DNA from: Trueperaceae bacterium
GTDB taxonomy: Bacteria; Deinococcota; Deinococci; Deinococcales; Trueperaceae
Assembly (NCBI GenBank): GCA_965213705.1
Contig: OZ243913.1
Coordinates: 3,840,001-3,904,000, forward strand
Direction of reading: 5' to 3'
DNA: 64,000 nucleotides
The translations under genes and the position numbers were made by a program. Below, one piece after another: positions 55,157-58,434 of this stretch; positions within the stretch are counted from its first letter, which is position 1, and the number at the start of each line of letters is the position of its first letter. The notes below the pieces were generated by a model. The model was given only the letters and a program-made list of their open reading frames with translations. It ran no database searches and was not told the origin of the DNA.

Positions 55157-56035
55157 CTAAAACGCGTAGCGCACCGTGCAGTAAGGCACGACCTCGGCCA
55201 TCAAATCTTTGAGCGCGCGCACCTGCCGACCCTTAAACCCACTTCGGTAGCGCACGTTGTCGCCGCCCATCTGCGAGGTCTTCGCCTCCTGGTTGTGCGG
55301 CGTCCAGAGGAGTTCTTCGGCTTTCGGGTGCCAGCCCAGATTGACCTCGTGCAGTTGCTCGTTGTGAGTTAAAAAGATAACCTCGGCTTTGAGTTGGGCC
55401 TTGGCCGCCTCTGAAAGTGTGTCGTCGACCTCGGTCAGCAGCGCGCGGTAGTCTTCCAGCCAGCCGTCGTAAAGGACGACCGGGCTCAGGTTGAGGTGAA
55501 CTTCGTACCCTGCCGCGACGAAGTCGCTGACGGCGCTGATGCGCTCACTCATCGGCGAGGTGCGCACGTCGACGGTTTTGGCGACTTTCTGGGGCATGAG
55601 CGAGAAGCGGACGCGCGTTTTGCTTTGGGGGTCGTAGCTTAGCAAGTCCCGGTTGACATACTTCGTCGCGAACGAGGCTTTGGCGTTCGGCAGCGTCTTA
55701 AAGAGGGTGACGAGGTCGCGCACGTTGTCGCTTATGAGTGCGTCCACCGAACAGTCGCCGTTCTCACCGATGTCGTAGACCCAGAACGTGGGGTCGGTCT
55801 GGGCCGGGATTTTGGGCTCGAGGGCGGAAGCGTGTTTGCTGATGACTTTTTGGATGCCTTCGATGTTCACGAAAGTCGTGACGGGGTTGGCGTAGCCCTT
55901 GCGGCGGGGCACATAGCAGTTGTGCGTCACGACCCCGTTTGCCAAGTAGCTTTCGGGGCCGGGTACGTGAAAGTTGTAGACTTTGGCAGGGCCTTTGACA
56001 CGCTTTATGCGCTTGACAGGTTGATAGTTGAGCAC
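55157..56035 (-). CDS. Split spore-photoproduct-lyase-family protein, C-terminal part: 39-aa C-intein fused to 253-aa C-extein
   Basis: GAGGAGG RBS + GTG; VYNFHV...YLANGVVTHN|CYVPRRKGYANP; SPL-family YDIGENGD, FATKYVN, RVRFSL, EVIFLTH. Confidence 0.92.
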   Translation of the reverse strand: MLNYQPVKRIKRVKGPAKVYNFHVPGPESYLANGVVTHNCYVPRRKGYANPVTTFVNIEGIQKVISKHASALEPKIPAQTDPTFWVYDIGENGDCSVDALISDNVRDLVTLFKTLPNAKASFATKYVNRDLLSYDPQSKTRVRFSLMPQKVAKTVDVRTSPMSERISAVSDFVAAGYEVHLNLSPVVLYDGWLEDYRALLTEVDDTLSEAAKAQLKAEVIFLTHNEQLHEVNLGWHPKAEELLWTPHNQEAKTSQMGGDNVRYRSGFKGRQVRALKDLMAEVVPYCTVRYAF

Positions 56036-56899
56036 AGTCCTCCTCGAGGTGACAAGTGGTTAAACAAAACTGTCTGTGGTGTGGCAAAAACGTCACAAGT
56101 GGTGACTTCTGTAACAAAGTTTGCGAGAGCCGCCACACGAACATGATGGGCAAGCCGTGTAAAGCCTTTTATTCTTATGCTCAAGCCGCAGCTTACTTGG
56201 GTAAAGACAGCCGTACCATACGCAAGTACGAACACGTTCTTTTTGTCATCGACAAATCTCTGACCAACAAGCACGCTAGGTTGAGAAGCTGTAAGGTTTG
56301 CGGCGGACTGTTCAAGTCGTTCGAGAACAGGAACGGCTATTGCCCGCCTTGCTCGCAAAGGGGCGAAGGGCGCAAAAATCAAGCGAGAGTGTTGTCGCAG
56401 CAACACCAGGGTGAGGGTAACCCCAACTACGTTGACGGCAGCGCCAAGCAAACGTTCAGACACCTTGGCACAGGTAAGGCTTGGGCCAGAGCGGTTCTCG
56501 CACGTGACGGCGTGTGCCGTTGTTGCGGGAGCGACAGCGACCTTCAGGCGCACCATGTTCTCCCCAACGCCCTCTTCCCGGAGCACGCCACCGACGTTAG
56601 CAACGGCGTTACTCTGTGCGGCCATCATCACACAGAACTTCATCTTGCTCGTTTAGATCTCCTGCTTTTACCCAACCTCTACGCGTCCACAGAGGGTGGT
56701 CCGCCGTTACACGAAGCGTTGTGTCGCCAAGCTCAATTTCAAGAACTTCGTCAACGTCCCTATAAGCCGTTCCGGAAACGACGGCTGTTACGAGCCGTTC
56801 CGAAGAACTATCGAAGGCAACTACTTCGGATCCATCCTGAATTTGCTCGACAGGTACTGGGCCTTGCGGCGTCGTGACGAGGGTGCCTTCGGCCACACA
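55919..56899 (-). mobile_element. Split intein plus antisense HNH endonuclease cassette (981 bp)
   Basis: Runs from intein Cys1 (56897-56899) to terminal Asn (55919-55921); excision restores CAMACAYC. Confidence 0.9.
56056..56877 (+). CDS. HNH endonuclease with N-terminal zinc-finger/HTH-like modules (putative homing endonuclease)
   Basis: RDGVCRCCG...LQAHHV...DVSNGVTLCGHHHTELH; two extra CxxC..CxxC clusters; GEGNPNYVDG; GAGGTGA RBS. Confidence 0.88.
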   Translation: MVKQNCLWCGKNVTSGDFCNKVCESRHTNMMGKPCKAFYSYAQAAAYLGKDSRTIRKYEHVLFVIDKSLTNKHARLRSCKVCGGLFKSFENRNGYCPPCSQRGEGRKNQARVLSQQHQGEGNPNYVDGSAKQTFRHLGTGKAWARAVLARDGVCRCCGSDSDLQAHHVLPNALFPEHATDVSNGVTLCGHHHTELHLARLDLLLLPNLYASTEGGPPLHEALCRQAQFQELRQRPYKPFRKRRLLRAVPKNYRRQLLRIHPEFARQVLGLAAS

Positions 56900-57199
56900 G
56901 TAGGCGCAGGCCATCGCGCAGCCGTTGCTGGCCCCCGGCGCTATAAAGTCGGCGCTGCGCCCGTTGACGCGCACCGGCAGCGACTTGCGCACGCCTAAGA
57001 CGAGGGTGTCGCGTTTGATGCGCACCCAGTCCTCTACCGAGCCCTCGTTGCCGTGGAGGCTTGGGATATTCCAGTGTGACGGTACTTCAATCCGCTCGGC
57101 GTCGGGAAAGCGGGCCAGGATGTCCTGGCCGCGCGGGTAGCCGGGGACGCTAGGCTCGAGATAAATCTTCCCGACCTTGAGCATCGAGTCCGTGAGCAT
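56609..57199 (-). CDS. Split spore-photoproduct-lyase-family protein, N-terminal part: 100-aa N-extein fused to 96-aa N-intein
   Basis: NGCAMACAY|CVAEGTLV (block A), TADHPLW (block B), GWVKAGDL, then TAA; ATG overlaps upstream stop (TGATG). Confidence 0.92.
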   Translation of the reverse strand: MLTDSMLKVGKIYLEPSVPGYPRGQDILARFPDAERIEVPSHWNIPSLHGNEGSVEDWVRIKRDTLVLGVRKSLPVRVNGRSADFIAPGASNGCAMACAYCVAEGTLVTTPQGPVPVEQIQDGSEVVAFDSSSERLVTAVVSGTAYRDVDEVLEIELGDTTLRVTADHPLWTRRGWVKAGDLNEQDEVLCDDGRTE

Positions 57200-58287
57200 C
57201 AAGTCCAGTACAGCACGCGCGCCTGCGGAAAACGCCGGGCGATTTCAGCCTCGAAGAAGGCTTTCAGCTCGAGCATCACGTCTTTGGTGTACACGTACTT
57301 CGTGCCGCCGAACTTGTTGCGCTTGACGCTGCGGCTCGACTCGTCCAAGTCGAGCGAGGTGTTCGGGTACCAACTCAGCAACACCTCCTTCGAACCCGGC
57401 GTAAAGCGGTGCGTGATGAGTTCGAAGGTGAGGTCGCAAGGAAAGTCGAGCGCGGCCTCTATCTTGTCGAACAGGTCCGTGTAGTGCGCGCGCCAGTCCT
57501 CGCCGGGCATAATCGGCGCGACGACGAGCCCGACGGGATAGTCGGCCAGCGCGAGCTTGCGTAAAGCTTGCAAGCGCTTCTCGACCGAGGCGGTGCCGCC
57601 TTCCAAGCGCTCGACCGGCGCGGCGTTGACCGAGGCCCTGGCCCGCGTGTGACCGTGGTGGGGCACGTCCAGCAAGGGCTCGACCGCGTCGAACTTGCTC
57701 ACATAGCGCAACCGTGCGTTCTCCAAACCTCCGAAGTGCCGAACGCACTCGCTCAGGGAGTGGGTGAGGTGCTCTAAACCCAGCGGGTCGGTGTAGCAGC
57801 TCACCTCGAAACTCGTCTCGCGGTCCGGCTGCAAGTAGTTGGTGAGGTTGTCCAAAATCTCGTGCAAGTTCGCGTACACCTTTGTCACCGGCGGCCCCGA
57901 CAGCGACCCCGCGAGGTAACAATATTGGCAGTGCGCCGGGCAACCCTGGGCTAGGTGAAACTGGTAGTCGGCCGACGGCGGGATGGGCTGAAGTTTGAAC
58001 TGCGACGGCGGCGCGGTCACGACCGCGAGCGTGCGCTTGGCGAGCCGGTAGGTCTCGCGCTCGGTCTCGCCGCGCAAACCGGTGATGCGGTTACTGCTGA
58101 GTTCCACGGTGGGCACGCCCAGTTCGGTGACGCGCTCGAGAATCCGCCGCCCGTGCTCGTGCTTCAGGGCGTCGGGCGTAAACAGCGCCCGCTCGGGCAG
58201 CCACAGTTTGGGGCGGCCGGTCTTGGTTTTGACGGAAGGTGCGACGAAAGGGGCGGAAGTGCCGACGGTCGGCAGGGCGATAGCCAT
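57199..58287 (-). CDS. splB: Spore photoproduct lyase-like radical SAM protein (intact)
   Basis: GCPAHCQYCYL, FEVSCYTDPL, APIM, ITHRFT, NKFGGTKYVY. Confidence 0.88.
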   Translation of the reverse strand: MAIALPTVGTSAPFVAPSVKTKTGRPKLWLPERALFTPDALKHEHGRRILERVTELGVPTVELSSNRITGLRGETERETYRLAKRTLAVVTAPPSQFKLQPIPPSADYQFHLAQGCPAHCQYCYLAGSLSGPPVTKVYANLHEILDNLTNYLQPDRETSFEVSCYTDPLGLEHLTHSLSECVRHFGGLENARLRYVSKFDAVEPLLDVPHHGHTRARASVNAAPVERLEGGTASVEKRLQALRKLALADYPVGLVVAPIMPGEDWRAHYTDLFDKIEAALDFPCDLTFELITHRFTPGSKEVLLSWYPNTSLDLDESSRSVKRNKFGGTKYVYTKDVMLELKAFFEAEIARRFPQARVLYWT

Positions 58288-58341
58288 AGTGCTCCTTTGT
58301 GGGGGTTGAGAGACGTGAAAAGAGGGGGCGAAAAACCCTGA

Positions 58342-58364
58342 TTTGCTATACAAATTATAGCAAA
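58342..58364 (-). promoter_or_regulatory. Extended -10 promoter overlapped by a palindromic operator candidate
   Basis: TTTGCTATA-N5-TATAGCAAA; minus strand reads TG-C-TATAAT. Confidence 0.6.
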
Positions 58365-58434
58365 CGGGCGGGCTCGAGTTGGAGCCCAACTCACAGTTCA
58401 GCTAGTTGAGTTTCATCGTCCAGCACGCATTTTC

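Follow-up and report, generated by a model that had tools for sequence, protein, structure and literature searches.

Fractured genes, in which two ordered open reading frames (ORFs) carry the halves of a split intein at the break and a nuclease gene occupies the gap, have been described for hosts that include gp41, NrdA/J, IMPDH, and others (Dassa, London, Stoddard, Schueler-Furman and Pietrokovski, 2009; PMC2677866). In that paper, the nucleases are of the GIY-YIG or Vsr-like type, HNH is named only as something that ‘could’ fracture genes, and overlaps of 6-69 bp join the 3' end of the nuclease gene to the start of the downstream gene. A second group comprises contiguous inteins of actinobacteriophages with antisense LAGLIDADG or Vsr-like nucleases and an endonuclease VII-like one in frame 3; these second ORFs typically lie outside the splicing domain, and invasion of an intein by a free-standing nuclease was proposed as their origin (10.1101/2025.01.02.630785). 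Inteins are also hosted by SplB (COG1533) of Actinobacteria, with 48 cases (Novikova et al., 2016; PMC4760082). Here we analyze a 64,000-nucleotide stretch of the single 4.25-Mb contig OZ243913.1 from a Trueperaceae bacterium (assembly GCA_965213705.1, positions 3,840,001 to 3,904,000; hereafter the window, numbered from its first base). We consider it likely that a spore-photoproduct-lyase-like (SPL) radical SAM gene in the window is interrupted by a 981-bp split-intein cassette whose HNH endonuclease gene overlaps the N-terminal intein half (N-intein) on the opposite strand, and that this cassette, as we predict, spreads as a unit.

Like the fractured genes (PMC2677866), this locus has two ordered ORFs, split-intein halves at the break, a break at an active-site motif, and overlapping coding regions, an overlap which that paper treats as a constraint. 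It differs from them in that the nuclease is of the HNH type and lies on the opposite strand, the overlap extends to 269 bp (88 of the 96 N-intein codons), and the host is a radical SAM enzyme. With the actinobacteriophage inteins (10.1101/2025.01.02.630785) it has in common a nuclease read from a strand or frame other than that of the intein, but here the intein is split and the nuclease ORF runs through splicing blocks A-B, which places the locus outside the contiguous antisense-nuclease inteins as defined earlier (Gorbalenya, 1998; Gogarten, 2002; both as cited in 10.1101/2025.01.02.630785). In the ShiLan-type insertions of phage methylases (PMC11855218), a second reading of the insert in a conserved gene likewise encodes a hidden HNH homing nuclease flanked by zinc fingers, with a GTG start close to the insert edge, but these nucleases are encoded on the same strand, in frame 3, without an intein, and their host-frame reading is a passive loop. 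The SplB hosts (PMC4760082) resemble the gene studied here as repair-type radical SAM enzymes, a comparison that holds at the host level only. The literature searched, which did not extend to subscription-only papers, yielded no account of an N-intein overlapped by an HNH gene on the antisense strand.

The host is a single SPL gene carried as two adjacent ORFs that keep their order and orientation (Table 1), and by its sequence the locus qualifies as a fractured gene in the sense given above. Joining the N- and C-terminal host portions (N- and C-exteins) yields C-AMA-C-AY-C, in which the +1 Cys of the C-extein supplies the third ligand of the CxxxCxxC motif; the halves must be joined for this motif to be whole, as it is in the contiguous orthologue of a same-genus relative (G001). 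The N-intein matches Hint-family profiles (Pfam PT-HINT, E 6.8e-9; Hint_2, E 1.5e-6) and, among Protein Data Bank (PDB) sequences, a bacterial intein-like domain (2lwy, E 3.8e-9) and the NrdJ-1 intein (8ubs, E 3.2e-5). The C-terminal intein half (C-intein) ends in ...VYNFHVPGPESYLANGVVTHN, after which the C-half continues with CYVPRRKG; it aligns with positions 120-155 of Pfam Intein_splicing at a sub-threshold E of 7.1e-4 and can be aligned with the C-inteins of 18 other loci. All residues expected of a class 1 intein are present, i.e., Cys1, TADH (TxxH), the terminal ...THN, and the +1 Cys, and the intein ORF is broken by the stop at 56609-56611 and restarts at 56035. The final metal-binding segment of the nuclease, TLCGHHHTELH (56611-56643), faces the last N-intein codons, and 19 nt separate the nuclease stop from the Cys1 codon, both as an earlier reading of the sequence alone had described the overlap (hereafter the sequence-only reading).

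Table 1. Features of the fractured SPL locus (window coordinates; aa, amino acids).
Feature	Position	Strand	Remarks
Cassette (C-intein, 20-bp spacer, HNH gene, N-intein)	55919..56899	both	981 bp; alignment with G001 locus L068
HNH endonuclease ORF	56056..56877	+	273 aa + stop; GTG start; GAGG motif 6 nt upstream
N-half ORF	56609..57202	-	197 aa; ...CAMACAY, then intein CVAEGTLV...DDGRTE, stop
C-half ORF	55157..56035	-	292 aa; VLNY...VVTHN, then CYVPRRKG
N-intein	56612..56899	-	96 aa; Cys1 56897-56899; block B TADH; stop 56609-56611
C-intein	55919..56035	-	39 aa; GTG start after GAGGAGG; end ...VVTHN precedes +1 Cys
Spacer between divergent start codons	56036..56055		20 bp; Shine-Dalgarno-like motifs for both genes, from sequence
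N-extein, SPL-family radical SAM	56900..57202	-	ends ...GCAMACAY; Pfam SPL PF20903 E 1.4e-11
C-extein	55157..55918	-	begins at +1 Cys; Pfam SPL E 8.2e-24
Dual-coding overlap	56609..56877	both	269 bp; HNH codons 185-273 + stop versus N-intein codons 9-96 + stop
HNH beta-beta-alpha-metal core, residues 154-196	56515..56643	+	Pfam HNH_2; invariant columns; VIA Z 6.4 to 5h0o
HNH C-terminal tail, residues 197-273	56644..56874	+	predicted helical; wholly antisense to N-intein

The ORF in the intein gap can be assigned to the HNH (beta-beta-alpha-metal) endonuclease class both by profile and by catalytic residues and modeled fold, as the sequence-only reading had proposed from its HNH signature. Residues 154-194 match Pfam HNH_2 (PF13391) at E 2.2e-4, with 21.5 bits against a cut-off of 21, and Pfam HNH (PF01844) is matched below threshold. 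The ORF also matches phrog_144 ‘HNH endonuclease’ (E 3.1e-12), and nine of its 12 PHROG matches carry the HNH endonuclease label. An AlphaFold2 (AF2) model with a mean predicted local distance difference test (pLDDT) score of 89.2 contains the beta-beta-alpha core (E163-167, E184-188, H189-197). Foldseek returned nothing from the PDB at E <= 0.001; among structural alignments, that with the GVE2 HNH nuclease 5h0o ranks first (VIA Z 6.4, root-mean-square deviation 5.3, 84 residues aligned), and the core is also common to T5 SciA (9qgx) and I-HmuI (1u3e), with VIA Z of 4.7 and 2.5, respectively, and sequence identities to the three of 12-26%. To our knowledge, none of those phage HNH nucleases is encoded opposite an intein. 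The core comprises C154, C157, H166, H167, N183, H192, and H196, of which the His and Asn residues are invariant in 25 sequences, and the window nuclease retains all 23 columns that are invariant across that set. The additional CxxC clusters that had been noticed in the sequence are C6/C9, C19/C23, C79/C82/C96/C99, and C154/C157, with C79/C82/C96/C99 invariant in the 25 sequences. The AAAYLG segment that had been called helix-turn-helix (HTH)-like is present, but its only profile match is a sub-threshold one to NUMOD1 (residues 38-58, E 0.0035, 18 bits versus 22.8). Database homologues of the nuclease number 15, at 40-64% identity.

The sequence-only reading had also predicted that the cassette is a 981-bp unit and what its empty target would look like, and G001 agrees with both. 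The cassette is absent as a block from G001, whose orthologue reads ...CAMACAY directly followed by CYVPRRKG... uninterrupted; at the DNA level its junction is GCGATGGCCTGCGCCTAC joined to TGCTACGTGCCCCGC, which equals the prediction at 32 of 33 bases, the one difference being a synonymous TAT/TAC exchange. This match fixes the insert at exactly 55919..56899. When the C-extein was used to search 40 relatives, three clear orthologues were recovered, with protein identities of 92% (G001) and 74-75% (G004 and G024), and all three are intein-free, reading ...CAMACAYCYVPRRKG... The neighbors of the gene in G001 are those seen in the window: it is preceded by an SPL paralogue and followed by a hydrolase-like gene. 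The DNA of the N-extein agrees with that of G001 at 266 of 297 bases and that of the C-extein at 679 of 759, and extein identity is 0.95-0.97 near the site versus 0.82-0.90 further out.

The distribution of the cassette is patchy. The HNH protein has matches in two of 41 genomes among relatives, i.e., its own genome (G000) and a weak, core-only match in G018, and a profile of the tail has matches in two of 364 phylum-sample genomes, G000 and one other with a weak match (E 1.2e-4). The cassette is single-copy in G000. A search for the same cassette elsewhere, one of the checks named in the sequence-only reading, recovered related cassettes in Rubrobacter, Rubrobacteraceae, Abditibacteriota (two), and Dictyobacter assemblies, as well as 49 further related loci in metagenomes and nine on viral contigs; the closer relatives of the nuclease are 52-65% identical to it. 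The guanine-plus-cytosine (GC) content of the cassette (0.542) lies below that of the C-extein (0.600) and the N-extein (0.647), as had been noted, and third-position GC (GC3) is 0.44-0.69 within the cassette versus 0.81-0.85 in the exteins; however, the cassette is no outlier in the window, where 90 of 631 stretches of 981 bp have an equally low or lower GC. Collectively, the presence of the cassette against empty alleles, its patchiness, its cross-phylum relatives, and its GC and GC3 say that the unit was acquired horizontally as a block; its current mobility is a separate matter.

To place the locus among its relatives, we examined 38 sources, i.e., the window and 37 loci. In 31 of these, a radical SAM N-half ending in CxxxCxx leads into an intein Cys1, and opposite the N-intein the HNH frame stays open for 239-338 bp. 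The 31 sources span GC contents of 0.29-0.65, bacteria of several phyla and phage contigs, and two radical-SAM host families, and the frame relation is identical in all of them, with HNH positions 1/2/3 facing intein positions 1/3/2. The HNH stop falls 1-28 nt before Cys1 in 26 sources, 55 nt before it in one, and 17-41 nt past it in four. The loci include near-duplicates (L002/L009/L021, L057/L058, L060/L061, and L019/L026). Among the other seven sources, L027 has the layout although the pattern missed it, contig ends truncate L015 and L020, and L004, L018, L014, and L025 have no intein opposite the tail. The first kind of host comprises SPL genes (PF20903), in bacteria and on phage contigs L057-L062, and the second comprises generic Radical_SAM genes (PF04055) with the site ...CxxxCxx followed by C(Q/E)N; the break lies directly before the third cysteine in both. 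Judged from these comparisons, the architecture is old, being common to loci with only 28-65% HNH identity, and the unit came ready-made to the genome studied here.

Antisense frames of GC-rich genes are often open, and the long plus-strand ORF could in principle be such a chance frame behind the intein gene. We randomized the synonymous codons of the intein in 2000 draws with its protein sequence fixed, either drawing GC-weighted codons or permuting codons within the intein. The antisense frame of the window was open for at least 88 codons in 3.7% (GC-weighted) and 1.05% (permutation) of the draws, and the per-locus probability of a frame as long as that observed was 0.001-0.073 and 0-0.10, respectively. 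Null open lengths averaged 17-34 codons versus 78-107 observed, and all 31 intein-linked loci are open, including those at GC 0.29-0.36. A chance origin is scarcely credible given shuffle probabilities of 0.01-0.04 here, as low or lower in AT-rich relatives, together with the Pfam, PHROG, and structural matches to HNH nucleases and 15 full-length homologues; we regard it as refuted by the profile matches, the homologues, and the synonymous shuffles.

Synonymous sites of the intein are constrained where the two genes overlap. Among 15 loci of the SPL group, the fraction of identical codons at codons for the same residue is 0.657 in the overlapped N-intein versus 0.383 in the N-extein, 0.335 in the first eight intein codons, which fall beyond the HNH stop, 0.415 in the C-intein, and 0.401 in the C-extein. 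The excess in the overlap is significant over columns taken as independent (Mann-Whitney, p = 1.3e-16), and also against the C-intein alone (p = 3.2e-6), which is the fairest control because it has the same cassette history. Divergence by codon position agrees (13 loci). Third positions of the intein diverge by 0.424 in the overlap versus 0.62-0.69 elsewhere, and third positions of the HNH gene by 0.317 in the tail versus 0.651 in the body; HNH second positions, which in the tail are the wobble positions of the intein, diverge by 0.407 in the tail versus 0.412 in the body.

Synonymous constraint by itself names no cause, and the antisense conservation might be non-coding, i.e., reflect RNA structure, a promoter of the C-half, or a binding site of the nuclease, with the tail translated as junk; the poor folding of the isolated tail is in keeping with this. 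We consider such an explanation highly improbable. The frame stays open in every one of the 31 intein-linked loci, whose GC contents run from 0.29 to 0.65, HNH second positions evolve as slowly in the tail as in the body, the tail is modeled as helical with pLDDT of 90-97 in the full-length context, and the tail ORF persists in L004, L018, L014, and L025, where neither intein nor host gene lies opposite. The dual coding proposed in the sequence-only reading, and the conservation of the HNH frame on which it set store, are thus both borne out: the same overlap and frame relation recur in 31 sources, and the overlap is really dual-coding on five lines, namely the open frame, synonymous constraint, position-wise divergence, L004, and the modeled fold. 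The substitution patterns demonstrate that purifying selection acts on both reading frames across the loci compared. In prokaryotes, few long antisense overlaps show selection on both encoded proteins, and such cases are often contested. The present case offers clean controls, i.e., the non-overlapped parts of the same element, loci ranging in GC from 0.29 to 0.65, and escaped copies in which one frame is maintained.

The most instructive of these copies is L004, from a Dictyobacter metagenome-assembled genome. There, a contiguous mini-intein of 134 residues occupies the same site of the SPL gene, and the HNH gene lies outside the intein, divergent from and immediately upstream of the SPL gene (L004:201-2645). 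The L004 tail is 0.53-0.61 identical to those of nine relatives versus 0.23-0.33 for the antisense intein frame, which has an in-frame stop and has lost the Thr and His of block B; in the 36 pairs that do not involve L004, the ratio of intein to HNH identity is never below 0.97. Three further copies, L018, L014, and L025, have open tails opposite antisense frames full of stops. None of these tail-bearing HNH genes faces a functional intein; they lie at L018 (129-485), where a DinB-like gene follows, at L014 (251-961), and at L025 (227-970), in a contig of 24% GC among repeated paralogous ORFs.

Copies outside inteins are also what would be expected if the HNH gene were a selfish, free-standing nuclease with another target that has lodged in the intein gap, the mobility of the intein being independent of it. 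This strikes us as improbable. Nuclease and split intein occur together in 31 loci, in two radical-SAM families and at the same codon of the motif, and even the escaped L004 gene lies directly upstream of a gene from the family that hosts the intein.

The copies without an intein bear on how the tail arose. The tail segment appears confined to this nuclease family: a tail-only profile matched 27 proteins among 1.84 billion representatives, of which 19 have lengths of 228-316 aa and are matched at their C-terminus or close to it, seven are 89-175 aa, and one is 570 aa. Structural alignments reaching into residues 197-264 (VIA Z 3.1-5.7) were too weak to place the tail in a known HNH extension, and we assign it no fold. 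Twenty more distant HNH relatives that share the zinc ribbon and core were examined, and the final histidine could be located by pattern in nine. Eight of these nine ORFs end 4-10 residues after the last histidine; in the remaining case the HNH lies in frame within an ORF of 1519 aa. This 1519-aa frame (L049:61-4617) is a large replication-type protein and appears to hold two in-frame HNH insertions ending in ...VHNS, i.e., inteins. In a tree of the HNH body (29 rows, with 11 redundant or 5'-damaged rows excluded: L006, L009, L010, L021, L024, L026, L028, L030, L058, L061, and L064), tail-less and tail-bearing genes fall on the two sides of a branch with 100/99 support, L004 is nested within the intein-linked genes (96/89), and L025 is sister to a phage clade on a long branch.

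The N-intein is the older of the two readings because it is clearly homologous to other Hint domains. These comparisons suggest that the tail probably arose by overprinting, i.e., by extension of the HNH ORF over the antisense strand of the N-intein. An ancestral HNH ORF ending a few residues past its last histidine would have read on into the N-intein antisense strand, and the new tail would then have become a necessary part of the enzyme. We are evenly divided on the complete scenario, in which the C-terminal 77-100 residues were born by antisense overprinting, became a folded and needed part of the protein, and were kept in copies without an intein. Alternatively, a free-standing ancestor may already have borne the tail, in place of its birth over the intein. 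If overprinting is true, this would be a rare antisense gene birth in bacteria and phages for which the direction is known and both the before and after states survive.

We propose the following mechanism for the cassette. The two host halves would be translated separately and then trans-spliced, which would restore C-AMA-C-AY-C and with it the 4Fe-4S site. The HNH protein, with a predicted domain order of zinc ribbon, HTH-like segment, second zinc ribbon, beta-beta-alpha-metal core, and helical tail, would recognize the conserved DNA of the cluster motif and nick or cut empty alleles, and repair of the cut allele would copy in the whole 981 bp. An occupied allele would be immune since its site is split by the 981 bp. 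The C-half may owe its translation to an operon transcript running through the HNH antisense strand, in which case HNH expression would face convergent transcription. Homing activity, expression, and trans-splicing are each inferred here from sequence. As for the origin of the arrangement, the sequence-only reading had an HNH gene invading the endonuclease loop of the intein in reverse orientation. Such an invasion is plausible, the intein being split where contiguous mini-inteins are continuous (these contiguous forms of the same intein make up eight protein clusters, of which seven are 487-504 aa long and one, a partial sequence, 340 aa); that it took place in this genome is unsupported.

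Several findings weigh against the interpretation of the cassette as a dual-coding unit that spreads by homing. A scan of 55600-57400 for sigma-70-type promoters returned no sites, and along the exteins, identity to G001 shows no trace of a co-conversion tract of foreign origin. The HNH_2 match exceeds its cut-off by just 0.5 bit. The tail folded alone reaches a pLDDT of only 61, so the high confidence in the full model may depend on contacts with the core. The loci share ancestry, such that the per-locus P values and pair counts are non-independent, and the test over columns assumes independent columns. The position of L014 at the base of the HNH-body tree is not resolved. Finally, damaged nuclease frames stand beside intact inteins at L006 (2669-3241), L010 (402-1268), P0013, and P0014; the readable 5' part of the nuclease is lost in the first two, and the last two end approximately 35 residues after the HNH motif. 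On this evidence the nuclease can be dispensed with after fixation of the cassette, and the window copy, though its frame is intact, could be inactive.

The cassette might accordingly be a fixed relic, with an intein that still works because the host gene needs it and a silent or inactive HNH gene that is intact by virtue of recent arrival. The nuclease decay elsewhere, the single copy in G000, and the lack of promoter-like sites in the scanned interval fit this possibility, whereas the complete ORF with all 23 family-invariant residues, the Shine-Dalgarno-like motifs at both divergent genes, and the strong family-wide selection on the HNH frame do not. We regard a relic as unlikely and favor a cassette that spreads as a unit.

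Overlap and head-to-head starts render the element highly compact. Because the nuclease 3' third and the N-intein occupy the same DNA, deleting the former would abolish the intein and, as a consequence, the host gene. The genetic lock between nuclease and intein envisaged by the sequence-only reading would accordingly hold only against deletions; it does not extend to point damage, as the decayed nucleases of L006, L010, P0013, and P0014 attest. With this qualification, the cassette presents a testable case of a selfish nuclease and an intein becoming physically inseparable. It broadens the fractured-gene model to cover HNH nucleases, nuclease genes on the opposite strand, and radical SAM hosts, with one cassette family landing in the DNA that codes for the universal CxxxCxxC motif in two enzyme families, on bacterial chromosomes and in phages. 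To this the window contributes a copy on a bacterial chromosome whose empty site is known from a congener, and the relatives contribute escaped copies that separate the two frames. In practical terms, the family provides natural split inteins of approximately 96 + 39 residues with Cys1 and a +1 Cys, and its HNH nuclease is a candidate site-specific enzyme whose empty target is known.

Some features of the locus and its relatives deserve mention in their own right. The conserved end of the N-intein, DEVLCD (within window positions 56609-56643), faces the catalytic HHxELH helix of the nuclease, and the C-terminal linker of the intein may owe its unusual conservation to the nuclease frame. The scanned interval 55600-57400 contains three terminator-like sites, which is no excess over shuffled sequence. 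The true start of the N-extein is probably the ATG at 57184 as opposed to the listed TTG, which is overlapped by 4 bp by an intact SPL paralogue directly upstream of the fractured gene (57199-58389, minus strand, 396 aa, CPAHCQYC). This paralogue carries no intein despite having the same motif, and the same pair of paralogues is present in G001.

Among 12 loci compared, the window included, the start codons of the HNH gene and the C-intein share two bases (a CATG palindrome) in seven (L003, L005, L011, L057, L059, L060, and L062), such that neither gene has private upstream sequence there; the window has its 20-bp spacer instead. The PF04055-type cassette loci are L029 (1699-4102), L031 (218-2686), L032, L023, L016, L017, L022, L024, L028, L030, and L064. 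The N-terminal zinc ribbon is missing from several nucleases of this group, and the inner zinc ribbon is duplicated in some. L029 and L031 contain an additional MerR/HTH_17 gene, which is read from the host strand and is located between the start of the HNH gene and the C-half.

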